DNA of 64,000 nt from Vampirovibrio sp. (GCA_019634025.1 JAHQWC010000154.1:1309-65308); one strand, 5' to 3'. Shown: positions 10,033 through 53,682, counted from the first letter of the stretch. Notes: generated by a model from the letters alone, not told the origin. Program-made: numbers and translations.

Positions 10033-10033
10033 C

Positions 10034-10888
10034 TTACACAAACTCAGGTAGTACTGACTCATTATCTTTAGAGTCTGTTGAGGAGGAGTCCGGCGAACGG
10101 GTCTCTTCATCCAGAGGCTTGTGAATTCCCCGTTTGGATGTTTCTACAAAGGTCACCAACTCTTCAACGGCAGGATCCGGGTCAATTTCGGTGCGAATGG
10201 TTTCAATGGCCTGGCTTTGGTTCATGCCAGAAAACCACAGAAGTTGATAAGCTTTTTTCAGTCGGTTTCGGGTATCCAATCCATATCCCCGCCGCTTCAA
10301 ACCTACACGGTTTAAGCCCACGATGACGGCTTGAGGCCGTCCATCGGTCATGGCAAACGGAGGAATATCTTGCCGGGTCCCGCTGAATCCGGCAACCATG
10401 GCCAATTTACCGATTCTAACGAACTGGTGAACACTACAGGTGCCACTGATAAAGGCAGCATCACCCACTTCCACATGGCCCCCCAGTTGAACGGCATTGG
10501 CCAAAATCACATCGTCTCCCAACGTACAGTTATGGGCGATGTGGCTGTAAGCCATAATCATACAGCCGCTGCCGATTTTGGTTTCATTCCCTTCGCCGGT
10601 AGCTCGGTTAATGGTGACACACTCGCGGATAATGCTATTGTCGCCCACCGTTACATAAGAAGCTTCATGTCCAAATTTAAAATCCTGGGGAGTACCGCCA
10701 ATAACAGCACCGGAAGCTACCTTACAGCCTTTGCCCAGTCGTGTGTATTCTTTAATCACAGCATGACTGTCCAACTCCGTATGGTCCCCAATTACACAGT
10801 GAGGTCCTACGATTGCATAGGGTCCAATGACAACATTTGTGCCCACTTCGGCAGTCGGATCAATCACAGCAGTTGGATGGATGGACAT
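10034..10888 (-). CDS. lpxA: Acyl-ACP--UDP-N-acetylglucosamine O-acyltransferase
   Basis: MSIHPTAVIDPTAEVGTNVVIGPYAIVGPH… hexapeptide repeats typical of LpxA. Carries a ~25-aa acidic/Ser-rich C-terminal tail. Confidence 0.85.
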   Translation of the reverse strand: MSIHPTAVIDPTAEVGTNVVIGPYAIVGPHCVIGDHTELDSHAVIKEYTRLGKGCKVASGAVIGGTPQDFKFGHEASYVTVGDNSIIRECVTINRATGEGNETKIGSGCMIMAYSHIAHNCTLGDDVILANAVQLGGHVEVGDAAFISGTCSVHQFVRIGKLAMVAGFSGTRQDIPPFAMTDGRPQAVIVGLNRVGLKRRGYGLDTRNRLKKAYQLLWFSGMNQSQAIETIRTEIDPDPAVEELVTFVETSKRGIHKPLDEETRSPDSSSTDSKDNESVLPEFV

Positions 10889-10924
10889 GAAACAGTTGCT
10901 CCTTAAGCGTTGGCGGTTATTCCG

Positions 10925-11434
10925 CTATTCCACTCTGTCCACCAGTGAGAACATCAGTTCCCCTTCCAGTACGGGCTCACCGTCGACAAAGGCCTTGCAG
11001 TCTGCCTTGCCAATAGGGAGTCGGAGTTTTGTTAGGACCATCTCCATCTCCAATCGATCTCCGGGTACGACCATCCGGCGAAACCGGACTTTGTCAATGC
11101 CGGCAAAGACAGCCAACTTTCCCTTGGCTTCCGGTAAGTGAGCAATTAAGATACCGCCCAATTGGGCTAAGGCTTCTACCTGGAGCACACCAGGCATGAG
11201 CGGCTGGCCGGGAAAATGCCCTTGGAAGAAGGGCTCGTTCATCGTAACGTTTTTGTAGCCTTTGATTTGCTTGCGGTAAGCGTGCTCGGTGACCCGGTCT
11301 ACCAGTAAGAATGGAGGCCGGTGGGGGATATAGGTCATGATTTCTTCAACGCTAAGCGTTGGCATTAAGGTACCTGTTTCCGGCACCTGAGAGGTTTGGG
11401 TGGAGGGAGGATCCATGGTTTGTACCATTCTCAT
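10925..11434 (-). CDS. fabZ: 3-hydroxyacyl-ACP dehydratase FabZ
   Basis: [13 protein letters not shown] and [13 protein letters not shown] hot-dog motifs. The true start may be the internal Met at 11365 ([12 protein letters not shown]…). Confidence 0.85.
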
Positions 11435-11539
11435 TGAACTCCAGAATCAAGGGGGCGGCAGATAAAGACTTACAGGGAAACTTCTATGGTTTTAACATAT
11501 CCGCTCACTAAAATATAGTATGGTATCGAATGCTGTTTA

Positions 11540-12385
11540 TTAATTAATTTGAACAGCCGACAGCAGTTTTTTTGCAAAGCCTGTGTGACTCGCATGGCCA
11601 GCGTTAAAAGCAAAAATATGTGCCTTTATGTGAAGGGGGTTCAGGCCTGTCAGCATCAAATCTCCCCATAAATCTAAAATTTTATGGCGAATGGGCTCAT
11701 CTTCCATTCTTAGGGGCCGGGTGTATCCCCCATCATCCGTCAAACCCAGGGTGTTGTGTTCATCAACGCCTTTGGCAAGTCCCATAGCTTGTAAAGTAGG
11801 CAGTTCACGGACAAACCCAAAAGTTTGGGCTTTGGCAATGTCTTCAACGGTGTCTTTAGCGCTATCCCAACGGATCCAACGTTGTCTAAGATCCGGGTGA
11901 TCAAAATCAACGGCGTAAGTTACCTGTAAGCGGTTCGAGGGTAATGCATATAAAAGGGTCGTGTCGTTATGTACATAATGAACCGGCTGGGCCAGTTCTA
12001 ATTCTGGCTTGGGTTTAATCATGCAATCCGGCAGTCCGGTATTCAGGTGTTTAATCCACTCTATAGCACTCCCGTCTAATAATGGGAGTTCCGGTGCACC
12101 GTTTACAGATACTTTTAAATCCGAGGCCTCGGCCATGGCGCAAGCAGATAGAAAATGCTCCACAATAGCCAAAAATTTGCCGGATGGGTGACCCAGAGTA
12201 ACTCCCCTCTCGGTGTTTACCACGGTTTCTAATCGAGCAGGAATGGGGAGTTCTCCATCAAGGTAAAATACAATGCCATGGCCTATTGGTGCTGCTTCAA
12301 TCTCCACAGTGACAGGCAGCCCAGTGATCAAGCCTTTGCCACTGACAGTGGTCTTTTTCCCTGAGGGCGCCTCGGTCGTTTCCAA
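11540..12385 (-). CDS. lpxC: UDP-3-O-acyl-N-acetylglucosamine deacetylase
   Basis: LpxC-like sequence (…VEHFLSA…HASHTGFAKKLL), ~280 aa. Positioned between lpxD and fabZ. Confidence 0.75.
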   Translation of the reverse strand: METTEAPSGKKTTVSGKGLITGLPVTVEIEAAPIGHGIVFYLDGELPIPARLETVVNTERGVTLGHPSGKFLAIVEHFLSACAMAEASDLKVSVNGAPELPLLDGSAIEWIKHLNTGLPDCMIKPKPELELAQPVHYVHNDTTLLYALPSNRLQVTYAVDFDHPDLRQRWIRWDSAKDTVEDIAKAQTFGFVRELPTLQAMGLAKGVDEHNTLGLTDDGGYTRPLRMEDEPIRHKILDLWGDLMLTGLNPLHIKAHIFAFNAGHASHTGFAKKLLSAVQIN

Positions 12386-12388
12386 AAC

Positions 12389-13522
12389 CTAGACCTCCAC
12401 TGGCTCGTTTGGGGTGCCCGTATTCTGCTGGGCTGTTTCCAATTCATTCACCCGTTTTTTTAAGGCGATCATATCCTTGTGCATATCTTTCAACTTGTTG
12501 ACGTACCCTAGCGTCTGAAACACCTCCCGATGAGGCTTTGCCGGGGCGCCAACAATAATTGATTTTGGATCAATATCATTCATGACCCCACTTTTGGCCA
12601 TGATGATAACATCATCTCCAATACTAATGTGGTCTTTCAGTCCCACTTGGCCGGCCATCACCACACGATCGCCTACTTTACAACTGCCAGAAATTCCTGC
12701 CTGACCTGCGACCAAACAGTTTTCACCCAAGGTATTGTTGTGGCCGATCATCACCAGGTTATCGATCTTCGTGCCTTTTTTGATTCGAGTAGCGTCTAAA
12801 TTGGCCCGATCAATGGTGGAACAGGCGCCCACTTCCACGTCATCTTCCAGAATCACAGTCCCAATAGAGTTAATCCGAATGATCTCAGAATTTTGTGCTT
12901 CAATTTTCCCGCCAGATTCCCGAGCAGATTCGATGCTACCTTTTTCCGGCGTCACATAGCTAAACCCATCGGCGCCAATGCTGACGTTGTGTTGCAGAAT
13001 CACTCGGTTGCCCAGTATGACCCGTTCACCCACCCGGGCGCCAGAGTGCAGTAAAACATCCTCTCCTAAAACCGCCTCGGCGCCAACGGTCACATGGCTC
13101 ATCAGCACGGCGCCTTTACCGATTTTGGCGCCTTCCCCGACATAGACAAACGCGCCAATCTTAGCAGAGGGGTCCACCTGGGCCGAAGACTCCACAATAG
13201 CACTGGGGTGTACGCCGTCATAAGCATGGACCGGTTTATCAAAAATATTCAGCAGCTGTGCTAACGCCACTCTAGGACGCTCCACCACAATGTATCCGGC
13301 CAACACCCCGTCAGGCACTGTCATCTCTTTAGATACGATGGCGGCTTTTACCGGAGTATGGGGCAGAATTTCCAGTGCCTGAGGCTCAATGGCAAAAGGC
13401 AGATCCTGGGGTGAGGTGGCCATCATCGGGTGAACCAGTTGAGTGACCTCAATGGATCCATCCCCAACGACGGTGCCTTGCACTTGGGTTGCAATGTCCT
13501 GGAGCGAACGTAGTGGGGTCAT
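12389..13522 (-). CDS. lpxD: UDP-3-O-(3-hydroxyacyl)glucosamine N-acyltransferase with a ~40-aa C-terminal coiled-coil-like extension
   Basis: LpxD N-terminal domain and extensive hexapeptide repeats. 377 aa with a C-terminal KLKDMHKDMIALKKRVNELETAQQ tail. Confidence 0.85.
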   Translation of the reverse strand: MTPLRSLQDIATQVQGTVVGDGSIEVTQLVHPMMATSPQDLPFAIEPQALEILPHTPVKAAIVSKEMTVPDGVLAGYIVVERPRVALAQLLNIFDKPVHAYDGVHPSAIVESSAQVDPSAKIGAFVYVGEGAKIGKGAVLMSHVTVGAEAVLGEDVLLHSGARVGERVILGNRVILQHNVSIGADGFSYVTPEKGSIESARESGGKIEAQNSEIIRINSIGTVILEDDVEVGACSTIDRANLDATRIKKGTKIDNLVMIGHNNTLGENCLVAGQAGISGSCKVGDRVVMAGQVGLKDHISIGDDVIIMAKSGVMNDIDPKSIIVGAPAKPHREVFQTLGYVNKLKDMHKDMIALKKRVNELETAQQNTGTPNEPVEV

Positions 13523-22382: not shown

Positions 22383-24152
22383 ATGAAACTTGCTGCGGTT
22401 CGCCGGGATTTCACATTTTTAAAACGACTCATTGCCTACATTAAGCCTTATAAAACCCGATTTCTGATTGGGATGATCGCCTCTATCCCTCTGTCGGCAC
22501 TAGAGGGTGCGGCGGCGTATATGCTAGGTCCATTTGCAGACAGCATTATTCAGCATCATGAGTATGAAAAGCTTATGTGGCTGCCTCCGGCGGTGTTGGT
22601 TGCAGGGTTGCTGCAAGGGGTGCTGTATTACATCAGTGAATACTGCACCACCTATGTGGGCAACCGCATTACCCTGGATATCCGCACAGACCTGTTTCAA
22701 AAGCTAACCTCCATGGAGTATCTGTACTTCAAGCGCACCCCATCCGGCGATATTATTACCCGGTACTTTAACGATCCGGTGCAAATTCAAACCACCATTG
22801 TGTTGGTGCTGCATTCCTTTTTGCTGAATACGTTGCAAATTGTGTTTTTAACCACGGTGCTTCTGCTAAACAACTGGCTGTATGCATTGGTCTGCTTGTT
22901 AGTAATTTCCATGATTGTCATTCCCATTGATCAGCTTTCCAAAAAGATCCGTCGGCTGGATCATCATTCCCGGCAGATTACAGCGCAGGTCCTCAACCTT
23001 CTTAACGATACAGTCTTGGGTATTCGGGAAATTAAGTCTTACCGGCTGAAACCTTATGTGGATAAACAGTATGGCCGAGGCATGCAGCGCTACTTTCATG
23101 CCAGTATGAACATTACCAAAGCAGAATTTACGCTCCGGCCAATCCTCAGTATGATTGGCGCTGTCGCTTTGGCCCTTATTCTGGCTTTTGGGGGGTATCA
23201 GGTCCAAAATGGACAGATGAGCATCGGGTCTTTGTTGTCCTTCGCCCTTGCGCTGATGTTGTTATACCGTCCTATAAAGGCTGTCGGCCAAATCAGCGGT
23301 AAATTTCAACGGATCATGGCGGCATGCGAGAGGGTTTACGAAAAACTGGATGAAACCCCGGCGATGGATGAATCCGATGAGACGAAGCAATCGGTGGATC
23401 GTATTGAAACCGTTGCCTTTGACCATGTTTCTTTTGAATATGAGTCGAATCAGCCGGTCCTAAAAGACATTAACTTAACGTTTTCTGCCGGTACCGTAGT
23501 TGCCTTGGTTGGCCCCAGTGGTGGCGGGAAAAGCACCCTGGTAGACTTGATCCCTCGATTTATGGACCCGACCCAGGGGCGGGTGCTTATCAATGGGATA
23601 GATGCCAAACAGGTGTCGGTTCAATCCTTGCGCCAACATATTGCCATTGTGTCTCAAAAGCCTATGGCCTTTAGCGGCACTATTCGAGAAAATGTCTTAC
23701 TCGGCCGCTTGGAGGCAACTGAAGAAGAGGTCTGGCAGGCATTGAAAGGCGCTTGTTTAGACGATTGGGTTCGTGATCTCCCTGATGGGCTAGATACTCA
23801 AGTCACTGAAGGTGGCGGCTCCTTATCCGGTGGACAACAACAGCGTCTCGCCATTGCTCGGGCGTTTCTAAAAGATGCACCCTTGCTTATTCTGGATGAA
23901 GCCACCAGCGCCTTGGATAATGAGTCGGAACGGAAGGTGCAGCAGGCGCTGTTTAACTTGGTGCAAGGCCGAACGGTCTTTATCATTGCCCATCGGCTGT
24001 CCAGTACTCATGCGGCCGATCAAATTTTGGTGGTTCAGAATGGACAAATCACAGAATCTGGTACTCATCCCGAACTCATGGCCCAAGAGGGCATATATCA
24101 AAGGCTGTATACCCTGCAATTCCGGGATGAACCAGAATTCAGCAGATCTTAA
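22383..24152 (+). CDS. ABC exporter, fused permease/ATPase (MsbA-like lipid A/lipid flippase family)
   Basis: Six-TM N-terminal domain, then Walker A GPSGGGKST, signature LSGGQQQR and Walker B LLILDEATSALD. Confidence 0.85.
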   Translation: MKLAAVRRDFTFLKRLIAYIKPYKTRFLIGMIASIPLSALEGAAAYMLGPFADSIIQHHEYEKLMWLPPAVLVAGLLQGVLYYISEYCTTYVGNRITLDIRTDLFQKLTSMEYLYFKRTPSGDIITRYFNDPVQIQTTIVLVLHSFLLNTLQIVFLTTVLLLNNWLYALVCLLVISMIVIPIDQLSKKIRRLDHHSRQITAQVLNLLNDTVLGIREIKSYRLKPYVDKQYGRGMQRYFHASMNITKAEFTLRPILSMIGAVALALILAFGGYQVQNGQMSIGSLLSFALALMLLYRPIKAVGQISGKFQRIMAACERVYEKLDETPAMDESDETKQSVDRIETVAFDHVSFEYESNQPVLKDINLTFSAGTVVALVGPSGGGKSTLVDLIPRFMDPTQGRVLINGIDAKQVSVQSLRQHIAIVSQKPMAFSGTIRENVLLGRLEATEEEVWQALKGACLDDWVRDLPDGLDTQVTEGGGSLSGGQQQRLAIARAFLKDAPLLILDEATSALDNESERKVQQALFNLVQGRTVFIIAHRLSSTHAADQILVVQNGQITESGTHPELMAQEGIYQRLYTLQFRDEPEFSRS

Positions 24153-24286
24153 TATTTATAGGCGCAATTCTTGATCTTGAGAGGTCTTTTAAGTATAAGT
24201 AATTATACTAAATTTGTTAAAATTTTAATGTAAATAGTAAATATTCATGATTGGGTTCATGACATATTGAAGGGTTTTTTCACCAA

Positions 24287-25702
24287 ATGATTTTATCCTT
24301 TCAGCCAGGTACTCTTCCAGCGGCTAATGGTTGGTTACGCTCTTCTCGGCAAGTCTCTCCCTTGAGTTTGTCAAAATCAAACCTGCAAACAGTTCGGTTT
24401 TCTGCACAAACAGTACCATCAAATGATCCGTTGTCATTGAACGATCGATATTTGTCAGATGAAGAAACCGTGGCTACCTATGTGACTGCTTTTGATGAAC
24501 ATGCCGATCCCAAGACAGATATGTTAAAAGTGAATGGTGAACTCACAATCACGCCACCGAAACAGTTCATTACCCCTTACAAATCCAAGCGTAGTAACTT
24601 AATAGTAAGTGGCACTAAACGTTTAAAAGACCGTATTGCTGAAACATACCAAGCACAGGGTCTTCCCATAAAGGGTGAGCAAATAGTTTTGACGACGGAA
24701 TTTCGCTCTCTATTAGGTGGTCTGTATCGGGTACTGGATGGGGATATTATGCTAGCTACTCCTTTCTGGCCATATTTTAAGACTTTAGCCAAAGATCATG
24801 GCAAACAGGTTTATGAAATCCCTACATCTGGGCAAACCGGTATTACCCTGTCTACATTGAAATCTACCTATGAACAAGCAGTTAAGAAACCCAGAATCTT
24901 ACTGATACACAATCCAAGCGATATTAATGGTTTAATTTCAGATAATTCGGACGTAGAAGCGATTGCAGACTTTTGTAAGAAAAATAATATTGTCATTTTT
25001 AATATCCAGAGTTTCTTTGTCTATCCTGACTTTCATGATCATAAAGACTTTGCATCTCTATACCCTGAGGGAACAATCACCATCAATAACACGACGAAAG
25101 ATGCATTGGGACTGAACAAATATGGCATTGGTTGGGCTGTAGTACCGAATACATCTAAAGGCCGGACGCTAATGAACCGGTTGAAGGACCTGAAAACGCT
25201 GAAAGCGCCAACAGCTGCTGAGGCTGGAAAGAATGTGGAAATGCTGGAATATGTGGATACGATGGTCCGATTTCATCATTTACGCACGCAATTTTTATAT
25301 CGGGAGTTCGGCAAAATGGGGCTAGCGGGTCCTCGACCTTTGTTTACGCCCAATATGTTGATTAGTTTTAAAAAATACAAAAAAATCTTAGAAAAAATTC
25401 GAGTTCATAATGATAAAGATCTACAGAAATTTTTGTTGAAGAAGATCGGGATTGGGACCTTGCCGGGAAGCCTATTTAACCTGCCCGAAGAGGACATGTT
25501 TTTAAGGATTTCCACTGGAAACCTTGATCCGGGAGCGCTTAATGGTTGGGTAGACTCATGGAAGACAGCCCGGTATATGAATGAGAAAACCCATCCAGAG
25601 TTGCATTCAGTGGTTAAAAAATTCCGGGCGCTGACACAAAAGTTGGACGATGTGAGTACTGGAGCTTCAAAAACTGAGGGTATGGGAAGAAGCTCTGTCT
25701 AG
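24287..25702 (+). CDS. PLP-dependent aminotransferase-like protein (class I/II fold) with a ~120-aa N-terminal extension
   Basis: Weak resemblance to aminotransferase core (…ILLIHNPSDINGL…). Lower GC than the flanks. Function uncertain. Confidence 0.35.
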   Translation: MILSFQPGTLPAANGWLRSSRQVSPLSLSKSNLQTVRFSAQTVPSNDPLSLNDRYLSDEETVATYVTAFDEHADPKTDMLKVNGELTITPPKQFITPYKSKRSNLIVSGTKRLKDRIAETYQAQGLPIKGEQIVLTTEFRSLLGGLYRVLDGDIMLATPFWPYFKTLAKDHGKQVYEIPTSGQTGITLSTLKSTYEQAVKKPRILLIHNPSDINGLISDNSDVEAIADFCKKNNIVIFNIQSFFVYPDFHDHKDFASLYPEGTITINNTTKDALGLNKYGIGWAVVPNTSKGRTLMNRLKDLKTLKAPTAAEAGKNVEMLEYVDTMVRFHHLRTQFLYREFGKMGLAGPRPLFTPNMLISFKKYKKILEKIRVHNDKDLQKFLLKKIGIGTLPGSLFNLPEEDMFLRISTGNLDPGALNGWVDSWKTARYMNEKTHPELHSVVKKFRALTQKLDDVSTGASKTEGMGRSSV

Positions 25703-25738
25703 ATCATTTTATTATTGCTGAGGATTCGGATAACAGAA

Positions 25739-26956
25739 TTATGCGGTTGCCCGGGTATATTTTTTAGGAGGAAGTAGCCTAAGTTTCCGGAACGCAGCAC
25801 CAGGTCGTTTTAAAAGTTGCTTCAAATACGACTTGCCGGTGACTCCTCGGTTGAAAGCCCATAAGGCAAAGTTTTCATATGGTAGGATATTTCGGTTTAA
25901 CAGCTGATAAACGTACCATAGGGCAGCCTGATGGGAGATGAGGTCGTTACTGGAAGCGTAACGTTTGTTCGGTGGCAGAGTTAAAATCAAGTGTCCAGGC
26001 AGGGTATTTACCAGATTATCAGCATATAAAGTACCTTCATAAGGAATATCTAACTGAGCAAACAATTCTTTTAGCCAGGCTTCCAGTTGAGGAACAGTAT
26101 GGCGGGCAAGCAAATGAGTTTGGTAGGGGTTAGGGTCAACCTCAGGACAATCATCTCTAAGGAGGTCTAAAAATACCTCAGCAGCTTCGTCCAGAGTGCT
26201 AAATTCCCGTGAGTTTGCTTCATTCAGGTAGTCTTTACCGCCACCGGCTAGGTGCTTTTTTACTACTACGGGTAAGCCGCATAACAGTGCTTCAGGAATG
26301 ACTCGAGGGTCTCCTTCTTTATTGGTGAAAAGGGTAAAAATCCGACTTTGGTTGTAAAAGTAAGCCATATCCTCTTGGAGGATGGGCATACCCTGATTGC
26401 CTTCTAGGAGCATTAAGGTGAACTTTTCTCGCTCCTTTAGGCTGAACATCTTTAAGTAGTCGTCATAAATTTCCACATAATCCAGCTCGGGGTCACGCTC
26501 AGAGAGGTTTGGGCAGGCACAGATAATTAATGTGCGGGTTTCCGGGCGGCGGTCGTATACTTTGCGAAGTACGACCAGAAGTTCGTCCAGGCGCTTTAAC
26601 CGGCGAGGGCCAGCCACGGATAATATATCCCAGCGCTTTGCTCCCCGTGTTTCTGGTGCCATTTTGTTGAAACAGTCTGGTAAGAAATTGCGAGCGCATA
26701 AGGTGTTACGAGGAGTAGTGACGTCAGGGGCAAACTTCAGGGTATTAGTGGAGCCTAGGTGAAAATCGATATAGGGGAGCGTTCCGATATTCTCGTGAGG
26801 AGAGCCCCAGTGCATGCCAACGACGTACTGCTTTTTCAGTTCTTTCATAGCTGCGTCCATAAAAGGTACTTCAGGCTGGAAGAAAGCTTTTTCCTTATGG
26901 GTTAACATGAGAATACCCTTGGAATCTCCCACGGGGTCTTTCAGCAAGTGTGGCAT
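25739..26956 (-). CDS. Glycosyltransferase, GT-B fold (GT4-like C-terminal domain)
   Basis: C-terminal motif EGDPRVIPEALLCGLPVVV is typical of the GT4/GT1 donor-binding domain. Confidence 0.5.
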   Translation of the reverse strand: MPHLLKDPVGDSKGILMLTHKEKAFFQPEVPFMDAAMKELKKQYVVGMHWGSPHENIGTLPYIDFHLGSTNTLKFAPDVTTPRNTLCARNFLPDCFNKMAPETRGAKRWDILSVAGPRRLKRLDELLVVLRKVYDRRPETRTLIICACPNLSERDPELDYVEIYDDYLKMFSLKEREKFTLMLLEGNQGMPILQEDMAYFYNQSRIFTLFTNKEGDPRVIPEALLCGLPVVVKKHLAGGGKDYLNEANSREFSTLDEAAEVFLDLLRDDCPEVDPNPYQTHLLARHTVPQLEAWLKELFAQLDIPYEGTLYADNLVNTLPGHLILTLPPNKRYASSNDLISHQAALWYVYQLLNRNILPYENFALWAFNRGVTGKSYLKQLLKRPGAAFRKLRLLPPKKYTRATA

Positions 26957-26976
26957 TGTGTGACCTAAATCCTTTT

Positions 26977-27783
26977 CTACTTGTCCAATAGTAGGTCTTT
27001 GGGTTCCTGAATAATATAGTTCACCAAGACAGAGCGGGCGTTGGTTTTTTGAGGAGAACCGTAATGAAAGCCCCGGACATCGGCCAAAATGAGGGTTCCT
27101 GCTTTTCCGGTGAGTTGAACCTCATTGTGCAACAGGTGTTTCAAGTCGTCTCTGCTTAATCCAGTGCTGGATCCATCTTTTAGTCCCTGAAGCTGACGCT
27201 TCATCCGAGTGCCATGGCGTTTGTGACTGCCGCGGATGTATGTGAAGGGGCCATTAGTGTCATCAACATCGTCTAGGTATAAAAAAGATTTAAACTCTTT
27301 TTTGTAGCCGTCTACATGGTAGCCCCCATCAATATTACCGGCCATGTTGTGTTGATAGAGGAGTAGACCGCTATAGAATGGTCGTCCATAAAATGCTTGA
27401 GCCATCTTTAAGGGGAATGGATCATAGCGGAAGTCGGCAAGCTCATTGAGCAGGCCGTCAACACAGTAGATACGGCGGATACCTTGACCGTACTGGTGCT
27501 TGGCATTACCTACCCGGAGGTAGGCGCCGTTAGGGAGATCACGGTCTTCTTCCGGTGATAAGTATGCTTGAAGCTTTTTACCCATATTCAAGGCTTTTTG
27601 ACGGTCCCAGTAGCTGGGAATCACTACAAAACCGTCTTGGTTAAGGCTACTTAAAGTTTCTTTCTCTTGAGTAGAAAGGTCTTGGGCTGTATCGGCAATA
27701 AGCTGACGGCCAGCGTCCAAGAGATCCTTGGCAGCGGTCTTCGTAGTGTCTTTGATGTTGCGGCGTAGGTCTTTAACGGTCAT
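26977..27783 (-). CDS. Phytanoyl-CoA dioxygenase (PhyH)-family Fe(II)/2-oxoglutarate oxygenase
   Basis: HxD…H facial triad arrangement typical of PhyH: YHVDGY…LYLDDVDDTNGPFTYIRGSH. Confidence 0.6.
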   Translation of the reverse strand: MTVKDLRRNIKDTTKTAAKDLLDAGRQLIADTAQDLSTQEKETLSSLNQDGFVVIPSYWDRQKALNMGKKLQAYLSPEEDRDLPNGAYLRVGNAKHQYGQGIRRIYCVDGLLNELADFRYDPFPLKMAQAFYGRPFYSGLLLYQHNMAGNIDGGYHVDGYKKEFKSFLYLDDVDDTNGPFTYIRGSHKRHGTRMKRQLQGLKDGSSTGLSRDDLKHLLHNEVQLTGKAGTLILADVRGFHYGSPQKTNARSVLVNYIIQEPKDLLLDK

Positions 27784-28022
27784 GAGGTCATCCTCCCGTA
27801 ACTACCGGGCATTATAATACGGTTCAGGGGGATTCTCCAGATCCGTCCTTGGAGCAGGGTTTACCTGGGTATTTACAGAATTTGTAAAGAAATATAAAAA
27901 CTGACCTAAGTGCCCCTGTTAAAAATTGAGTTTTGAGACATGGGCTGAAAATGATTTTAGTACGTGGGTTGTAGAGGTTACACTTATGTCCCATGTCTCA
28001 CCTTCAGGACAGTCATCAGACG

Positions 28023-28307
28023 TCAATAGGTGGCATATCCGTCTCCGTGGTATTTCTTGATTTCAGACTCTCGCATCCCCGGAGCTCGGGGTTGTTTAGA
28101 TGGTTTTTCACGGTTGCTGTCATTACTTCGGGCTGCACGAGAGGCACGTTGCTGGTGTATTTTGGAACGAGGTGTCTGATCCCATCCCTGAGAGTAGTAA
28201 TCATTTGCGCTCCAGGTAAACATGATGATGAGTATCCCGAGGAACCCGAGACAAACCAAGTAGATAACAAACATCTGCTGTTTTTTGGATAAGGAGGACT
28301 GAGACAT
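28023..28307 (-). CDS. Small single-TM membrane protein (hypothetical)
   Basis: 94-aa ORF with one hydrophobic helix (FVIYLVCLGFLGILIIMF) and a basic C-terminus. It competes with two overlapping ORFs in other frames. Confidence 0.25.
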   Translation of the reverse strand: MSQSSLSKKQQMFVIYLVCLGFLGILIIMFTWSANDYYSQGWDQTPRSKIHQQRASRAARSNDSNREKPSKQPRAPGMRESEIKKYHGDGYATY

Positions 28308-28414
28308 TTACGGAATTCCTGACAGTCTCTAAAATCACGTCTAATCATAATTATATATTATGTATAGTAACTTTTAAACCCTATCCTTATAAATTCAACT
28401 TCAATATAGGAAAA

Positions 28415-28440
28415 GTGGAGAGAAGTTTTCTTCTCTCCAC
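28415..28440 (-). terminator. Rho-independent terminator downstream of the M16 peptidase gene
   Basis: Perfect 11-bp stem GTGGAGAGAAG/CTTCTCTCCAC with a TTTT loop. On the minus strand it is followed by TTTTCCT. Confidence 0.6.
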
Positions 28441-28472
28441 TGTCTGAAACTGCATATTTCTGTTTTCTGGAA

Positions 28473-31349
28473 TTAATCTTTCTGTAGCGGCTTTTTCTTT
28501 GAGGGCAGTTTTTCAGACTTTTTGGATGTTTTGGACTTCGCTTTTTCTAGTTTAGCCTGTTCCGGCACCAGTGCCTCGGGTTTGACGACAGAAGTCACTG
28601 CCGGGGCTGAAAAATACTTAGCAGCTACCTGCTGTAATTCTTCTGATGTCACTCGGTCAATCATTTTGGGATACTCAAAGTCATATTGGTACCCATGCCC
28701 CAGCATTTCATATAAACCCAAAAAGTAAGACTGACTTTCGTTGGTTTCGTGAGCCAAGGAAAATTCACCAATGAGCTTGTCTTTGGCTTTTCGAAGCTCG
28801 GCTTCTCCGACGGGCTTTTCTTTTAGGCTCTTAATTTCCTGCTTAAAGCCTTTCATCACCTTTTTTTCGTTTTTAGGGTCGGTGCCGATGAAGAGCACAA
28901 ACTTGCTACGCTCATGGGTTGATGGGTAGAAGCTACTGACGACATAGGCTAGACCTTTTTTGTCCCGGATATTGCGGAACAAACGGGAGCTCATCCCGGA
29001 TCCAAGGACGGAATTCAGTACTTTCAAGGGTACATGGTCTTTACTTTCCATCATCGGCGCCAGCCATCCATGGGCAATCCAAGCCGCCGCTAGATCCGGC
29101 TTGCCTTCTTCCAGGGTTACCGGCTTTTCCAAAGGTTGTACTGGTTCTACCTGGGTCAGCAGATCGCCGGTAATTTCAGAACGGCCATTTAGTTTAGAGG
29201 GTAGTGCTGCCAACAAGTAGTGTTCCAGTCGTTCCGGATCAAACCCGCCTACGACAGACACCACCATGTTTTTGGGCACAAAATATTGTTCATAGTAGCT
29301 TTTTAGGTGATGGCGTTTAATCAGATCCAGGTGGAGATCAACCCGAGGACCTACGTTTCCGTATGGATGCTGAGGATAAAGTCCCATGGCCAGATTCTCT
29401 AGCGCAATAGAGGAAGGGTTATCCCGACTGGATTGGATGGACTGCTTTAGTAACAGCTTTTCCTTTTCAAACTCTGCCTGAGAGAAAGCTGGGGCGGTTA
29501 ACACATCCTGTAACACTAGGAAAAGCTCTCCTAAATCTTCTTTGACAGCAGATCCGCTGATCTGCATATAGTCATTCTTACTGGAAACCGAGAGCTGAAT
29601 GCCTTGACGTTCTAACTCCTGAGCCAACTCCTCTGGTGCCCGGGAGGTGGTTTCCTTGCGAAGTACGGCAGAGACCAATGCAGCGGTGCCCGGGATCTTT
29701 TCGACCAGTCGACCGCCTTTGACGAATATCTGGACCGCCACGGTTTCCGATTCCTTACGAGGTTTTGCAATGAGAGTGATACCGTTGGCCAGTTTTTTAC
29801 GGGTAACCGTTTGAGTAGAGGCTGTTTGTTTGTTTGAAACAGGCCCTTGTTCCGGTGATGCTATGTGAGAAGGCTCCTCAGGACCAACAGAGCTATCAGA
29901 GTGGTTAGAAAACTCATCCAACAAGGCCAAGAGCTCTTTTTCTTCTTGTTCGGTTTTAATGTCCGAGGTTTTTTCTTCCGGTAACACTTGCACCACGGCG
30001 GCATGTTGAAAATTCAGGTATTTTGCCAGGGCGGCTTTAACGTCTTTCAAAGTCACATCCTGAATGTTATCCACATACTCCGTATAATCGGATAATTCCC
30101 CAATAGTTACGTTGTAGCCGATACTGCTGGCGACCCCACCGGTGGATTCTGTGTGAAAGATGAAATCCTTGATGGTTTGGGTTTTGGCTTTTTTGAGTTC
30201 GGCCTCCGTAATTCCCTCGGTTTTAAGGCGTAACAACTCTGTCATCATTGCTTTACGTGCTGCCGGAACGTTTTCGGGCTTTGTGTCGGCATAAATATAC
30301 AACACTCCTGCATGGCGCTGGGTAGAATTGGCTGCTGCAATGCTATTGACCAGCTGTAGATCTTCTCGTAACCGGGTAAACAGCCTGGAGCTCTTTCCTT
30401 GCCCCAGAGACATCATGGCAACATCCAGGGCGTAATTCTCTTTTTTCTCTTCAATCCCTGGTACCATAAACCCAATTCCCAGGTAGGCCTGCTTGATATT
30501 GGGATCTTGCAACACTTGTACAGCCGGCTCTTTGATTCGAATAGGGCGGCTTACTACCTCCGGCTGGTATTTACCAGTTTGTTGTTGTAAGGCGGCAAAA
30601 TCTGTGGCTGGAAAATACTTTTTGACCAGTTCGGTGGCTTCTTTCACCGTGACATCACCCACTACAACGGTGCGGAAATTTTCCGGTCGATACCAATAGT
30701 GGTAGTACTCGGTAATGCGCTTACGGGGCATACTGCCGATGAGTTTTTTCGGTCCCAGGGTCTCTAAAGAATAAGGGTGGCCTGGAAAGAGTTGCTGCGT
30801 CAACCCCATAAACAATTTGCGGGTAGGGTTGTTATGAGCCCGGTTGATTTCTTCCTGTACGACTTTACGCTCGCTGGTCAGCTCTCCAGGAGGGATAGAC
30901 GCTTGAAGCAGCATATTGGAATGAATTTTTAAGGCGTCTTCAAAAAACCGGCTGGCAATGGTGATGGGGTAGTGGGTGTAATCGTCACTAGTCATACCAT
31001 TGTAGTTGGCGCCATAGCCTTCCAGCAGTCGCTCGATTTCACCGACACGGTAGCGGTCGGTGCCTTTGAAAATTAAATGCTCCAAAAAATGAGAGACGCC
31101 GTTGTTTTTTTCGTCCTCATTCACCGAGCCGGTGGTGATCCAAGTGTCAATACTGACAATGGGCTGATCGTGGTTTTCCTGTACATAGAGCATTTGACCA
31201 CTGGGCAGCCGGACTTCGTGGACGGTATTGTCGCTACCTGCAACCGCTGTTGCGCAAGAGATGATACTGATGATCAAAACGCCTGAAAATAGGGCCGAAA
31301 AAAGACCTGCTAAACGATGACCAAAAGATTGCTGAATAACCCGCAACAT
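28473..31349 (-). CDS. M16-family (pitrilysin/insulinase-like) zinc metallopeptidase with two tandem M16 units, a signal peptide and a Lys-rich C-terminal tail
   Basis: HFLEHLIFKGT inverted zinc-binding motif (HxxEH). 958 aa, consistent with duplicated active/inactive M16 halves. N-terminal hydrophobic signal sequence. Confidence 0.8.
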   Translation of the reverse strand: MLRVIQQSFGHRLAGLFSALFSGVLIISIISCATAVAGSDNTVHEVRLPSGQMLYVQENHDQPIVSIDTWITTGSVNEDEKNNGVSHFLEHLIFKGTDRYRVGEIERLLEGYGANYNGMTSDDYTHYPITIASRFFEDALKIHSNMLLQASIPPGELTSERKVVQEEINRAHNNPTRKLFMGLTQQLFPGHPYSLETLGPKKLIGSMPRKRITEYYHYWYRPENFRTVVVGDVTVKEATELVKKYFPATDFAALQQQTGKYQPEVVSRPIRIKEPAVQVLQDPNIKQAYLGIGFMVPGIEEKKENYALDVAMMSLGQGKSSRLFTRLREDLQLVNSIAAANSTQRHAGVLYIYADTKPENVPAARKAMMTELLRLKTEGITEAELKKAKTQTIKDFIFHTESTGGVASSIGYNVTIGELSDYTEYVDNIQDVTLKDVKAALAKYLNFQHAAVVQVLPEEKTSDIKTEQEEKELLALLDEFSNHSDSSVGPEEPSHIASPEQGPVSNKQTASTQTVTRKKLANGITLIAKPRKESETVAVQIFVKGGRLVEKIPGTAALVSAVLRKETTSRAPEELAQELERQGIQLSVSSKNDYMQISGSAVKEDLGELFLVLQDVLTAPAFSQAEFEKEKLLLKQSIQSSRDNPSSIALENLAMGLYPQHPYGNVGPRVDLHLDLIKRHHLKSYYEQYFVPKNMVVSVVGGFDPERLEHYLLAALPSKLNGRSEITGDLLTQVEPVQPLEKPVTLEEGKPDLAAAWIAHGWLAPMMESKDHVPLKVLNSVLGSGMSSRLFRNIRDKKGLAYVVSSFYPSTHERSKFVLFIGTDPKNEKKVMKGFKQEIKSLKEKPVGEAELRKAKDKLIGEFSLAHETNESQSYFLGLYEMLGHGYQYDFEYPKMIDRVTSEELQQVAAKYFSAPAVTSVVKPEALVPEQAKLEKAKSKTSKKSEKLPSKKKPLQKD

Positions 31350-34508: not shown

Positions 34509-35253
34509 GTAGACGGGCTCCTCAAAAGGCTAAACAAAGTTGGCGACTCGCTGGTTGCGATGTTAACTGCCAAACGTGTGAAACGGCTTTTACATTTCCT
34601 TCACTGGTAGAGATATCGGCAGGGTTAGCGCAATCTTTAAAGAGGTGCCAAAAAGGGACTCTTCAGTGTATCGTGCTGACCCTTTATTCTGGTCAGTTCA
34701 CTCTCTATTTATCTTATTACAGTTGATTATACTTTTTTGGGTACTCCGGTTCATCCCCATAAAAGACGGACTTCTGAATGAGCGGGAACAGCGCTCATAC
34801 GGTAGGGGCAATTACCCTCACATAATAAAAAAGCCTGGCTTTCGCCAGGTACGAATCCCCCTCGATAAAAACGTTCTCACTTTTTCTTTCCTAAAGACTG
34901 AATAAACTTTTTAATGCCGATGTGATAAATATTTGTCCCGGTATGGTTGCAGTTGCTGCGCTTCAACTGCCGAGCCCCTTACATAGGCATAAAAACAGGC
35001 AACACCAGTTTTGTGACGGGCATCATAAACATGTTTTTATTTCTTTTTGTTGAATTACCGGTATAAAAGCCTGTAACGCGTTTAATAAACGTAAACAATG
35101 GCGTTAAGGCTCATGAATAATCTTTCATTAAATGCACAGCGCGGGTGGCTTGCATCCATTGGCCGGATGGTTGAAAATACAGGGAATTAACCATCGCAAT
35201 ATCAAGTGCGTTCATCCTATTGGGTCGCTGGCAAGAAAGGGATTTGGGCGGTT

Positions 35254-36258
35254 ATGCAGGGATCTGCCAGTGTTGAGGCGGGAGAAAATGATGTAATTCC
35301 TGCGATTCGGGTGGAGAACATCCGAAAGCGGTTTGATGGGATTCAGGCTCTGGACGATGTGTCTTTTACGGTGCCTCAGAATACGGTGTTTTGTATTTTG
35401 GGCCATAATGGCGCCGGAAAAACAACGTTATTAAGAATTTTGACAACGGTGACCCGGCCTGACTTTGGCTCTGCCTGTATTCATGAGTATTGTGTTCAGA
35501 AAAAAGCCATCCATGTCCGGCATCAAATTGGGGTGGTCAGCCAGGAAAACCACTTTGATAAGTATTTAAACATCTGGGAAAACCTGATGCTCCATGCCCA
35601 ACTGCACGGGATGTCTACCAACCAGGCAACCGATAGAATTACGGATTTGCTGCATTCCGTCAGTCTTTACCATCGCCGGTTTGCTGAAGCGGATGATCTG
35701 TCTGGCGGGATGCAACGACGGCTGTCTTTGATTCGAGCCCTGATTCATCGGCCCACAGTATTGTTTTTAGATGAACCCACCACAGGACTGGACCCCGTAG
35801 CCAGACTCGACATCTGGAATATTCTGGAGCAGTTTAAGCAATCGGCAACGGTGGTGTTGACCACCCACTATTTAGAAGAGGCCGATCGGTTAAGTGATCA
35901 CATTTTGATTGTGGATCGAGGCCGAGTGTTGGTGCAGGATACACCAGACGGCTTAAAGCAAAAATACACCCGAGCGGGGCGGTATGACATGATCCTCTCT
36001 CATGAAGCTGACCATGATAAAAGCGCGACAGTCATTGGGTCAATCCCCGGTATCCACGTGGAAGAAACCAGCCTGGGTACCAATGGGATGCAGTTTCTAT
36101 TAGACGTGAAAGACCCAGAAAATCTTACGACACTTTTTCAGCAGATTTCGCCCCGGTATTTGATCCGGTTTGAACCCTTAAAGACCGATCTGGAATCTAT
36201 TTTTATGGCCATTGCCAATAGCGCAAAAGATACCAACCCTGAGGGAGGGCCAAGGTAA
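35254..36258 (+). CDS. ABC transporter ATP-binding protein (ABC-2 / DrrA-like)
   Basis: Walker A GHNGAGKTT, signature LSGGMQRR and Walker B VLFLDEPTTGLD. Start placed at MQGSAS; the ORF is open from 35206. Confidence 0.85.
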   Translation: MQGSASVEAGENDVIPAIRVENIRKRFDGIQALDDVSFTVPQNTVFCILGHNGAGKTTLLRILTTVTRPDFGSACIHEYCVQKKAIHVRHQIGVVSQENHFDKYLNIWENLMLHAQLHGMSTNQATDRITDLLHSVSLYHRRFAEADDLSGGMQRRLSLIRALIHRPTVLFLDEPTTGLDPVARLDIWNILEQFKQSATVVLTTHYLEEADRLSDHILIVDRGRVLVQDTPDGLKQKYTRAGRYDMILSHEADHDKSATVIGSIPGIHVEETSLGTNGMQFLLDVKDPENLTTLFQQISPRYLIRFEPLKTDLESIFMAIANSAKDTNPEGGPR

Positions 36259-37034
36259 TGGCATGGCTTAGGCTACATCCGCGCCGGGGAATTTTCCCCA
36301 TTTATCAAAAGACCCTACAACAAGAGACCAAAGGGATTGTGACAGAGTTTTTGGCGACTTTGGCTATCCCTTTGAGCTTTTTTCTGGCCTTTGGATTGGG
36401 GTTAAGAGACTACATTACGGAAGTGGACGGGGTGCCCTATGTGGTGTTTATGACCCCAGGCCTGATTGTAATGACGATGTTAATGGAAGCCTACCGAACT
36501 GGCGCATGGGGACTTTGGCTGGACCGACGGCACCAAAAAATGATTGATGAATACCGGATTAAGCCGATTACCACCTCTGACATTATTATTGGTGAAATTT
36601 TGGGGGGCTTTACCATTGGTATCGTCAAAGGAAGCCTGGTGGGGCTAATTTTAATGTTGTTGGCGCCGTTTGACTTGGCCTGGCAGAATATTCCCGGGTT
36701 TTTAATGATGGTGGCGCCAGGCTGTATTTTGTTTACGTGTGTGGGTTGTATGGTGGGCACGACAATGAAGAAACCGGATCAGATTGCCCAGTCTCAAACC
36801 TTAATTATTACCCCCCTCCTCTATTTAGGGGGGCTATTCTTTCCCATTAATGCTTTTCCACCAGAACTAATGCCTCTTATCACTCGATTACCCACCACAG
36901 CTTTGTTTGATGGAGGGAGAACCGCACTTCTAGAAGGTGTTTTAATGCCTGATTATCTGATGTTATTGGTAGTCGCTGCAGTAGCCAGTTTCATTGCAGC
37001 AACCGCCTGGTTTAACCATAAAATGGCGGAATAA
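36258..37034 (+). CDS. ABC-2 family transporter permease
   Basis: Six-TM ABC-2 permease. Start overlaps the ATPase stop. Confidence 0.75.
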   Translation: MAWLRLHPRRGIFPIYQKTLQQETKGIVTEFLATLAIPLSFFLAFGLGLRDYITEVDGVPYVVFMTPGLIVMTMLMEAYRTGAWGLWLDRRHQKMIDEYRIKPITTSDIIIGEILGGFTIGIVKGSLVGLILMLLAPFDLAWQNIPGFLMMVAPGCILFTCVGCMVGTTMKKPDQIAQSQTLIITPLLYLGGLFFPINAFPPELMPLITRLPTTALFDGGRTALLEGVLMPDYLMLLVVAAVASFIAATAWFNHKMAE

Positions 37035-37372
37035 TAAGAAGGCAGAGCGTCTCATCCGGCGGCTGCTTTCATTGAAATCTAAATCCTCTAAACGTATTTC
37101 GCATAAATCACAAAATTGGAATATAGATAGAATAGATGAGTTGATAAAGATTATGCAAAGGTACTTCCTGCGTTTACCGAATTCTCTTTATAATAAAGCC
37201 GATTAATCGAATATTGTCTGTTGGAATCAAAACCCAGTCCCTTCCATTTAGGCTACTGAATTCGTTAGTTTTTTGTAGTCGGCGGGTAGAGAAGAATCTT
37301 ACGTAAGAGTCTTAAAAGGTCTGATTGGATATAAGTATGTTCTTGATAAGTCAGAAAATAGGAGTTAGCTCA

Positions 37373-39181
37373 ATGAATTCAAGAAAAGTCACACCGTTGC
37401 TGTTAGCAGCAAGTGTGTTCTTAACCGGCGCCACAGGATTTTTTCTGGAAGCCATGACTCCTGCGCAGGCGTTGACCAGTGTGGATGAACTTTCAGATGT
37501 AAACTCAAGTCACTGGGCTTATGAAGCCCTGAGAGATTTGGTTGAAAAGTATGACGTGATTGAAGGCTACCCAGACGCCACCTTCCGTGGTGATCGTGCC
37601 CCCACTCGTTGGGAAATGGCTGCCGCCCTCAATGCCTTGGTAAAGTCCGTTGGTCGTGACTTGGCCCGTTTGGGTGCTGAGAAGGCCAACAAACGTGACT
37701 TGGAAACCTTGGCCCGGTTGCAGCAAGAATTCCGCAACGAGCTCAACGCCTTGAACCAACGCACCACTGCTTTGGAGCAACGCGCTTCAGCCATTGAAGC
37801 CAAAAACGAAGAGCAGGATAACCGCTTGACGCTGTTGGAAAAAACCCAGCTTCACGGTGACTTCAGCTTTGGTGGTATTGCTGACGTTGGCGACAACGGA
37901 ATTGCTACCACAGGAAACGACGGTTTCAGAGACGGATTATCCACCATTGGCCGCTTGCGGTTATCCATGGATATTCCAGTAAAAGAAGCTGACGATGATT
38001 CTTACTTGGGACGTGGAGATGTCTACGCCCGGATGATTGCCGCTTTTGGCCGTAACTCCAACACCAACAACGGGTTGGGTGGTTACACCGGATACTCCCG
38101 GATTGCCGGTGACAGCAGCTTTAACAACGAAGGTATCGGGGTTGTAAACGGTGCCTTTGGTACAGCTGGTGTTGCGACAAACGGCGCGAGCACCCGGTCC
38201 AACTTGTACCTGGAATCGGCCTACTACAAGCAAGAAGTGAACCCAGGTGTTCCGATTTTGACCGACTGGTTCGGCATGACGGATTGGGATATTACGGGTG
38301 ACGCCTACGCTGGTGTCGTGCCGTGGCGGTTCTTGTTCGACAAGAGTCCTTACCGTGGTAACGAGTTGACTCAGTTCCAGAACAGCGCCTTTGTGAACAT
38401 TCCTGGCGTTGCTGTGAACCTGAACCAACCCACCTTGGCCTACGTATGGCACATGGGCATGAATGATGAAACCTCTTTGGACTTCACCACTGCCTTTGCC
38501 TCTCCTAACGTGGGTGACGTTTATGATGGCTGGAACCTGACCTACGAAGGCCGGTTAAACTACGATTCATTGTTTGACTTGGCTGGTGCTGGTTCGTTTT
38601 ACGCCGGTGGCTACCACATCTGGTTGAACGGTAACTCTTTGCCAGGATTGGTGACTGCTGTTGGTGGTGCTACCGGCTTTGATCCTTCTGGGAACGGCCT
38701 GAACGTGGTGCAACAAAACAGTTCCAACGCCTTCTACTTAGGTTGGAGTCAGGACTGGTATGAAGGAATCGGAACGACCTTCAACTACCTGCTCTCTAAC
38801 AAAAGTGGTATTGGTATGTTGTATCAATCACTCAATCAAACCAACGGTGTAAGTTCTTCCTTTAACGGGGCAGGAACCGTTGTGAGTGTTCGCCAAGCCC
38901 TCAGCGGCGTGTTGAACATTCCAATGGCCTCTATCGCTCCTGGCTGGAGAGACAGCGACACCTTTGGGATTGGTTACGCCCTGTTTGATTTCCAAGAGAC
39001 TGGTGCTCAGACCAACAACACGGCTGATGCCTGGACTCACGTGATGGAAACCTACTACAAGTACCAGATGACCGAAAGCATCTCGTTGGTGCCTAGTTTA
39101 CAGCTGCACTTGAACCGGCTGGGACTGGACAAAAACGGCATGAGCTACGTGCTTGGTTTCAGAACCAACTACGAATTCTAG
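37373..39181 (+). CDS. Outer-membrane porin with an N-terminal S-layer-homology (SLH) domain and a coiled-coil linker (OprB/SomA-type)
   Basis: Signal peptide, then SLH motif SHWAYEALRDLVEKYDVIEGYPDATFRGDRAPTRWEMAAAL, a coiled coil, a Gly/aromatic-rich beta-barrel region, and a C-terminal NYEF (terminal Phe). Start chosen at MNSRKV with an AGGAG 8 nt upstream. Confidence 0.8.
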   Translation: MNSRKVTPLLLAASVFLTGATGFFLEAMTPAQALTSVDELSDVNSSHWAYEALRDLVEKYDVIEGYPDATFRGDRAPTRWEMAAALNALVKSVGRDLARLGAEKANKRDLETLARLQQEFRNELNALNQRTTALEQRASAIEAKNEEQDNRLTLLEKTQLHGDFSFGGIADVGDNGIATTGNDGFRDGLSTIGRLRLSMDIPVKEADDDSYLGRGDVYARMIAAFGRNSNTNNGLGGYTGYSRIAGDSSFNNEGIGVVNGAFGTAGVATNGASTRSNLYLESAYYKQEVNPGVPILTDWFGMTDWDITGDAYAGVVPWRFLFDKSPYRGNELTQFQNSAFVNIPGVAVNLNQPTLAYVWHMGMNDETSLDFTTAFASPNVGDVYDGWNLTYEGRLNYDSLFDLAGAGSFYAGGYHIWLNGNSLPGLVTAVGGATGFDPSGNGLNVVQQNSSNAFYLGWSQDWYEGIGTTFNYLLSNKSGIGMLYQSLNQTNGVSSSFNGAGTVVSVRQALSGVLNIPMASIAPGWRDSDTFGIGYALFDFQETGAQTNNTADAWTHVMETYYKYQMTESISLVPSLQLHLNRLGLDKNGMSYVLGFRTNYEF

Positions 39182-53505: not shown

Positions 53506-53510
53506 TACAA

Positions 53511-53565
53511 TCCCAACCTACCTATACTTAATAGTATAAAAACAAAAGTTAGGGCTTTTGTGCGG
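53511..53565 (-). promoter_or_regulatory. Conserved upstream element, copy 2 (putative promoter/leader of the lysozyme gene)
   Basis: TCCCAACCTACCTATA-n8-TATAAAAACAAAAG-n7-TTTTGTGCGG. Block spacing is identical to copy 1. Confidence 0.5.
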
Positions 53566-53682
53566 TTAAATTATAAAATGTAACATTTATAAAACAATCT
53601 AACATCAATTACCCATCCCCAGTCTTTATACAACTAGATATTCGTTTTTTAGGATAGGTTGGTAAAAAGGTAGGCTAGGCAG

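Follow-up and report, generated by a model that had tools for sequence, protein, structure and literature searches.

Do three neighbouring genes that share a stretch of unusually low GC content also share a function? This question is raised by positions 24,153 to 28,472 of a 64,000-nucleotide stretch of DNA from Vampirovibrio sp. (GCA_019634025.1, JAHQWC010000154.1:1309-65308; the whole stretch is hereafter called the window), where an aminotransferase-like protein (ORF471; ORF, open reading frame), a glycosyltransferase (ORF405) and a dioxygenase (ORF268) are encoded between an msbA-like gene and a gene for an M16 peptidase (Table 1). The initial annotation of this region described the three genes as one AT-rich tailoring cassette, either devoted to a lipid such as lipid A in concert with the adjacent flippase or acquired horizontally. 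We favour, with moderate confidence, a reading in which the region comprises a glycan-tailoring pair, ORF268-ORF405, that acts together with a distant operon for a WbuX-family amidotransferase, an amidase and a protein of 645 amino acids (aa), and, next to this pair, the unrelated gene ORF471, the product of which is probably not a transaminase.

As modelled, ORF405 is a two-Rossmann-domain GT-B glycosyltransferase of the GT4-like, retaining type, representing a small uncharacterised family. Its Pfam Glycos_transf_1 score of 24.2 bits is just below the cut-off of 26.4, and many of its homologues have precomputed matches to PF00534. An AlphaFold model based on 18 homologues reaches a predicted local distance difference test (pLDDT) score of 91.7, and its top 50 PDB matches are all GT-B glycosyltransferases with GT4 leading (E 1e-8 to 3e-6), the best being GtfA, PimB', TreT, BshA, TarM, WaaG and MshA at TM-scores of ~0.45-0.5. 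With GT4 enzymes such as WaaG, PimB', BshA/MshA, TarM and GtfA it has in common the GT-B fold, a C-terminal domain resembling Glycos_transf_1 and, in that domain, the EX7E motif, which reads E214-GDPRVIP-E222 and has both Glu residues invariant across the 18 homologues. It departs from the solved GT4 structures in being only 9-17% identical to them, at the TM-scores given, and in an N-terminal domain with conserved motifs of its own (THKE, GMHWG, DFHL).

ORF268 matches the Pfam family PhyH (PF05721) with 32.7 bits (cut-off, 22), and no other Pfam family at E values up to 0.1. Its iron-binding triad, H156-V-D158...H240, is intact; H156 and H240 occur in all of 42 sequences and D158 in at least 90%, and R250, the Arg binding the C5-carboxylate of 2-oxoglutarate, is invariant as well. 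The model (pLDDT 92.6) adopts a double-stranded beta-helix fold and is most similar to EctD, proline hydroxylase H11, SnoN/SnoK and GriE, with EctD, GriE and SnoN found at E ~1e-12. Judging from motifs and model, the enzyme looks catalytically competent. It shares the double-stranded beta-helix, the HxD...H triad and the 2-oxoglutarate-binding Arg with these PhyH enzymes, which act on small molecules; unlike them, it has an additional, long N-terminal helix (residues 3-30) and a genomic context of ulosonic-acid and surface-glycan clusters in place of osmolyte or antibiotic pathways, and it is only 13-18% identical to them, at TM-scores of ~0.6. Sequence searches of the PDB were uninformative for both ORF405 and ORF268. 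The domain calls of the initial annotation for these two proteins and for ORF471 held, with the folds confirmed. Both enzymes belong to well-known superfamilies, but no characterised member of either subfamily was found in the literature, nor was a paper linking PhyH enzymes to O-antigen or nonulosonic-acid loci.

The two genes belong together by position. ORF268 lies 20 bp upstream of ORF405 on the same strand, hence the two are probably co-transcribed, and ORF471 converges on ORF405 from the other strand across 36 bp. The association recurs elsewhere: of 34 non-redundant loci, 15 have a PhyH-family ORF close to the glycosyltransferase homologue, those without one being mostly short contigs of 1-5 kb, and the pair is directly adjacent in six independent loci (the window itself, L009, L018, L022, L035 and L039), in both gene orders.

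The setting of the pair in these loci is that of a surface-glycan cluster, in agreement with the earlier impression that the glycosyltransferase and the dioxygenase are glycan-tailoring enzymes. Recurrent neighbours are NeuB (10 loci), a PIG-L deacetylase (10), CTP_transf_3 (7), TylF-type and other methyltransferases, a GT29-like sialyltransferase, DegT aminotransferases, epimerases, and Wzm/Wzt transporters with a Wzt_C domain; Wzy and flippases are also present. A NeuB-type synthase and a cytidine monophosphate (CMP)-sugar synthetase are both encoded in L003, L006, L032, L038, L039, L098, L100 and L101. L098 combines the dioxygenase with a full pseudaminic-acid-type set (DegT, acetyltransferase, PseG-like protein, NeuB and CMP-synthetase) and with WbuX/HisH/HisF, the PseG-like protein being our reading of a gene with Glyco_tran_28_C and weak DUF354 matches; in L100, a legionaminic-acid-type set occurs with Wzm/Wzt, and the dioxygenase gene directly precedes that of the CMP-synthetase. 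Named family members derive from metagenome-assembled genomes of Alphaproteobacteria, Acidimicrobiales and Vicinamibacterales, a patchy taxonomic spread that is typical of surface-glycan genes. Two further proteins were seen in these loci. In several of them, the genes for the glycosyltransferase and the dioxygenase have between them that of an unannotated protein of ~507-517 aa, which shows only a faint methyltransferase signal, and in 11 marine loci (e.g., L038, 9114-9998) the gene immediately before that of the glycosyltransferase encodes a 295-aa protein without Pfam match.

A third partner of the pair becomes apparent from the loci closest to the window (glycosyltransferase 57-62% and dioxygenase 49-52% identical), in which the order is glycosyltransferase / methyltransferase - 640-aa protein - PhyH. 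This order is found in L002 (glycosyltransferase 57% identical), in L096 (glycosyltransferase 62%, dioxygenase 52%) and in the fragments L015 and L097; in L098, the PhyH gene is followed by the gene for a 634-aa protein. The window encodes a relative of these partner proteins, too, namely the 645-aa protein, which aligns over its full length with those of L002, L096, L097 and L098 (36% identity to L002/L096, 31% to L098). Its gene, 22 kb away from the ORF268-ORF405 pair in the same genome, is the last of a probable operon (47563-52099) that starts with the WbuX gene. The WbuX-like genes of L098 and L100 are accompanied by HisH/HisF-like genes, in the place of which the amidase is found here; this amidase may be an alternative supplier of ammonia. 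An ABC-2 pair at 35206-37034 was considered as a Wzm/Wzt exporter and rejected, being DrrA/NodI-like and devoid of a Wzt_C domain.

The 645-aa family has no match in Pfam, and a sequence search of the PDB with the window protein was uninformative. The C-terminal part weakly resembles the NCBIfam 'BFO_1060 family glycosyltransferase' and TIGR04396, with homologues reaching 36-41 bits. BFO_1060 belongs to a family of pseudaminic/legionaminic acid (Pse/Leg) transferases of Tannerella forsythia, the conserved motifs of which include an HP motif (PMC5420450). The 645-aa protein contains KKHP and, together with its homologues, shares a C-terminal likeness of 16-41 bits with these transferases (BFO_1060 / Tanf_01245); all scores are far under the 200-bit cut-off, and the N-terminal region of ~430 aa is without known relative.

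Beside the observed folds, catalytic motifs, gene linkage and base composition, we infer the substrates and the order of a pathway, in the same way as the co-transcription of the pair. In this pathway, ORF405 would transfer a sugar from a nucleoside-diphosphate-sugar to an intermediate of a surface glycan with retention of configuration, and ORF268 would use Fe(II), 2-oxoglutarate and O2 to oxidise one of the sugars of this glycan, by hydroxylation or in another way. The most plausible target of ORF268 would be a NeuB-derived 3-deoxy-2-ulosonic (nonulosonic-type) acid, its precursor or its activated form, because the dioxygenase gene is so often located within a NeuB/CMP-synthetase sub-cluster. 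Transfer of this sugar may be the task of the 645-aa protein, a candidate ulosonic-acid transferase, and WbuX may turn an acetamido into an acetamidino group. The ORF268-ORF405 pair thus probably works in concert with the WbuX-amidase-645-aa operon.

The PhyH family of ORF268 recurs beside NeuB, CMP-sugar synthetase and a putative ulosonic-acid transferase of 500-640 aa in several phyla. Oxygenases that hydroxylate a 3-deoxy-2-ulosonic acid or its N-acyl group are known, namely KdoO, which is the 3-hydroxylase of 3-deoxy-D-manno-octulosonic acid (Kdo), and the animal enzyme CMAH, which hydroxylates CMP-N-acetylneuraminic acid (CMP-Neu5Ac); they belong to protein families different from that of ORF268, so that the resemblance would be one of function. 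That the 268-aa family constitutes an undescribed ulosonic-acid oxygenase, a bacterial functional analogue of KdoO and CMAH, is an idea we regard as rather improbable. If true, such an enzyme could act on 2-keto-3-deoxynononic acid (Kdn)-, Pse- or Leg-type sugars at a common feature, e.g., C3 or the N-acyl group, and the Vampirovibrio pair together with the WbuX-amidase-645-aa operon would represent this system in a minimal and dispersed form. The wider value of the locus lies in the co-occurrence of an uncharacterised Fe(II)/2-oxoglutarate dioxygenase family, an uncharacterised GT4-like family and a 500-640-aa family weakly similar to nonulosonic-acid transferases in sialic-acid-like glycan clusters of several phyla; the function of the dioxygenase, once known, could reveal a new step in the modification of bacterial nonulosonic acids, a chemistry that shapes surface antigens as well as recognition by phages and by hosts.

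ORF471 does not take part in this association. A homologue of it is present in none of the ~40 loci retrieved for its two neighbours, and on this ground it was rejected as a component of the glycan module; the convergent orientation and the loss of residues binding pyridoxal phosphate (PLP) likewise speak against the proposal that all three genes form one cassette. The protein has a class-I aminotransferase fold (Pfam Aminotran_1_2, 64.2 bits versus a cut-off of 19.7; best PDB match 1GD9). The impression of an orphan, created by a word-indexed search that returned only two relatives, was dispelled by a full HMMER scan, which returned 607, the best being 31% identical. In an alignment with 25 of these relatives, the Asn of NPTG, the Asp of SDEIY and the Lys of SK are invariant, and the Tyr of SDEIY and the Arg of GWRLG are conserved in 24 of the 25. 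In this fold type, the Asp forms a hydrogen bond with the pyridine nitrogen of PLP, the Asn and the Tyr touch its O3', and the Arg holds its phosphate. In ORF471, the Asn is replaced by Asp212, the Asp by Ile240, the Tyr by Phe243 and the Arg by Gly280, and the Schiff-base Lys271 and Arg407 are retained. Moreover, the stretch VIFNIQSFFVY, which aligns to the invariant Asp motif, is without any acidic residue, so the loss of the ring-nitrogen Asp is independent of alignment details. Normal catalysis by fold-type I PLP enzymes requires the Asp at the ring nitrogen; owing to the loss of this residue, ORF471 is probably not a working transaminase.

A comparison with the class Ib aspartate/aromatic aminotransferases of Pyrococcus horikoshii (1GD9/1DJU) gives the same picture: ORF471 shares with them fold type I, the Schiff-base Lys and the C-terminal Arg, and differs from them in having Ile for the Asp at the PLP ring nitrogen, Asp for Asn, Phe for Tyr and Gly for the phosphate-binding Arg, as well as an N-terminal extension of ~100 aa. 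On these grounds, the protein is probably impaired or repurposed, and it offers a modest case of a possible PLP pseudoenzyme. The Tyr and the phosphate-binding Arg have also been lost from its closest relative, P0142. The P0142 gene, on L095 (1-1580), directly follows the 3' end of a paralogous gene, which makes the two tandem duplicates; the losses suggest stepwise decay or repurposing in this clade, and the arrangement a diversifying family. Within ORF471, a 24-nt direct repeat of 79% identity (24319-24342 and 25534-25557) encodes ...ANGWLR... near the N-terminus and ...LNGWVD... near the C-terminus; it may be due to chance.

One of the two alternatives that survive best concerns this gene. 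ORF471 might be a functional PLP enzyme whose active site is unusual and which supplies an amino sugar or an amino acid to the same pathway as the pair; the intact ORF of 471 codons, its normal in-frame coding score, the retained Lys271 and Arg407 and the Aminotran_1_2 score above the cut-off are in line with such a role. Four replaced PLP-contacting residues, a motif region free of acidic residues and the lack of linkage to the glycosyltransferase or the dioxygenase anywhere make it improbable; furthermore, the sugar aminotransferases in surface-glycan loci of this kind are generally of the DegT type.

The preferred reading, a glycan-tailoring pair with a remote operon and an unrelated ORF471, has several observations against it. 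A NeuB or CMP-sugar synthetase gene was not found within the 64-kb window, which is the main gap in the model. L024 is the only locus with long flanks on both sides that is nonetheless without the dioxygenase. The match of the 645-aa protein to BFO_1060 is very weak (16 bits, E 0.004), and as neither the ORF405 nor the ORF268 family has a characterised member, the substrates named above are guesses. With regard to ORF471, the catalytic Lys and the carboxylate-binding Arg are both kept, so that the protein may have a modified activity.

The other surviving alternative is that of a genomic islet of three genes, recently inserted between msbA and the M16 gene, and it is here that base composition matters. 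The GC dip reported for the region is real: at 43.6%, 24153-28472 is the minimum among all segments of 4320 bp (mean 48.2%, standard deviation 1.7%; the entire window, 48.2%). The flanking genes, by contrast, were wrongly placed at 50-58% (Table 1), and the low GC content does not extend over all three genes. ORF471 has the lowest value among the 50 genes of the window (z = -2.7), with 39.4% GC at third codon positions (GC3), and the spacers are AT-rich (42.1% GC for 27784-28472; for the other spacer, see Table 1), whereas ORF405 (z = -0.7) and ORF268 (z = -0.4) are ordinary, with normal GC3. Since only ORF471 and the spacers deviate, the dip amounts to one gene plus intergenic DNA and not to an islet of three genes. 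The codon-bias distance of ORF471 (B = 0.33) is equal to the mean of the window. Under the preferred reading, ORF471 would be an independently transcribed, fast-diverged gene that produces the dip together with the AT-rich spacers.

In favour of acquisition are, apart from the dip, the patchy distribution of the glycosyltransferase and dioxygenase families and the location of the nearest homologues on contigs of ~55% GC. On the other side, the three genes never occur together elsewhere, no tRNA is encoded in the 64-kb window, domain searches of the window ORFs revealed no integrase, transposase or other mobility domain, and no meaningful direct repeats flank the borders of the region. A recent insertion of all three genes is as improbable as a working ORF471: for the pair, acquisition has no support, and for ORF471 it has little. 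Comparably AT-rich genes are present elsewhere in the window, at 7382-8608 (42.5% GC) and 52681-53505 (42.4%). The former, on the plus strand, is trehalose-phosphatase-like with a GC3 of 37%, and it shows that single genes of low GC content occur outside the region as well; the latter is phage-lysozyme / GTA (gene transfer agent)-endolysin-like with a GC3 of 35% and adjoins an M23 peptidase gene, and these two genes (52681-54558) could provide a predatory bacterium with lytic enzymes or be what is left of a phage.

Less probable is the cassette for lipid A or ornithine-lipid tailoring, in which hydroxylation, glycosylation and amination would be coupled to the adjacent MsbA flippase. The neighbour is indeed MsbA-like (TIGR02203, 548 bits, below the cut-off of 602), and the organism makes lipid A, as follows from a block on the minus strand of the window (8605-13522) consisting of a hexapeptide-repeat gene (lpxD by position), lpxC, fabZ, lpxA and a GlmU-like gene; this block is ~9 kb upstream of msbA. 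The pair, however, lies on the strand opposite to msbA with ORF471 in between, and the fetched loci contain neither an MsbA relative (threshold, at least 35% identity) nor, in their tables of called genes, any lipid A gene, carrying instead the Wzm/Wzt, NeuB, CMP-sugar synthetase, PIG-L and methyltransferase genes described above. In addition, ORF268 matches only PhyH in Pfam, and those hydroxylases known to act on lipid A, ornithine lipids and Kdo (LpxO, OlsC, KdoO) are members of other families. The result for the window is mostly corrective, leaving one odd gene beside a glycan-tailoring pair of ordinary composition, and calls for the lipid A idea to be abandoned. Least probable of all is that the pair tailors a secreted small molecule such as a glycosylated natural product: SnoK/SnoN (nogalamycin sugar) and amino-acid hydroxylases are among the structural neighbours of ORF268, but neither the window nor the related loci have polyketide synthase, nonribosomal peptide synthetase or other scaffold genes, and the Wzm/Wzt, Wzy, flippases and NeuB of those loci are typical of surface polysaccharides.

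The features discussed are compiled in Table 1. The ORFs and positions given by the initial annotation, including those of the small ORFs, were reproduced, and the region is also present in an independent Logan assembly (L001), where the proteins are 100% identical.

Table 1. Features of the region, of the distant operon and of related loci (positions refer to the window unless a locus is named)
Feature	Position	Strand	GC	Remarks
msbA-like gene	22383-24152	+	48.6%	
AT-rich spacer msbA/ORF471	24153-24286		25.4%	134 bp; likely ORF471 promoter region with only weak sigma-70-like hexamers
ORF471, divergent class-I aminotransferase-fold protein	24287-25702	+	41.5%	
ORF405, GT-B GT4-like retaining glycosyltransferase (as modelled)	25739-26956	-	46.8%	
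ORF268, PhyH-type Fe(II)/2-oxoglutarate dioxygenase	26977-27783	-	47.7%	
Three overlapping small ORFs	27993-28348			
Single-pass membrane protein, 94 aa (tentative)	28023-28307	-		transmembrane helix, residues 12-30
Intrinsic-terminator-like hairpin	28414-28441	-		12 pairs and T run, just past the M16 stop codon
M16 peptidase gene	28473-31349	-	47.8%	
WbuX-family N-acetyl sugar amidotransferase	47563-48735	+		327 bits versus cut-off of 203
Amidase-signature enzyme (GatA/AtzE-like)	48732-50213	+		ends overlap both neighbours
645-aa protein	50162-52099	+		full-length homologue of dioxygenase-adjacent 634-641-aa proteins
Unannotated protein, ~507-517 aa (related loci)	L003, 12113-13636; L099, 8361-9914; JGI 73,701-bp contig			

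The claim of an AT-rich promoter in front of ORF471 is borne out with respect to base composition, and less so with respect to signals: the hexamers in this spacer are weak (9/12 matches), and the region as a whole contains 12 promoter-like sites versus 8.1 +/- 2.8 in shuffled sequences, which is not clearly above expectation. Two promoter-like sites are located on the minus strand, at 28378-28350 and 27839-27811. In the scan for promoters and terminators, counts did not exceed those of the shuffles, with the exception of one convincing terminator, the hairpin after the M16 gene, which separates this gene from the downstream unit. An Rfam scan of 23500-29000 gave only sub-threshold chance matches. 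Among the three overlapping small ORFs, the one encoding the 94-aa protein has the best coding score and is called as a gene by the gene caller of the Logan assembly; its status is tentative because no homologue was found in related loci.

As to the neighbouring genes, the M16 protein of 958 aa consists of two fused M16 peptidase units. It scores 214 and 180 bits against the YfmF and YfmH families, which are associated with the modification of elongation factor P (EF-P), below the respective cut-offs of 285 and 250, and a scan of genome contigs yielded matches of only 21-28% identity from unrelated phyla. At 37325-39181 on the plus strand, the window encodes a porin that carries an SLH domain together with an OprB domain.

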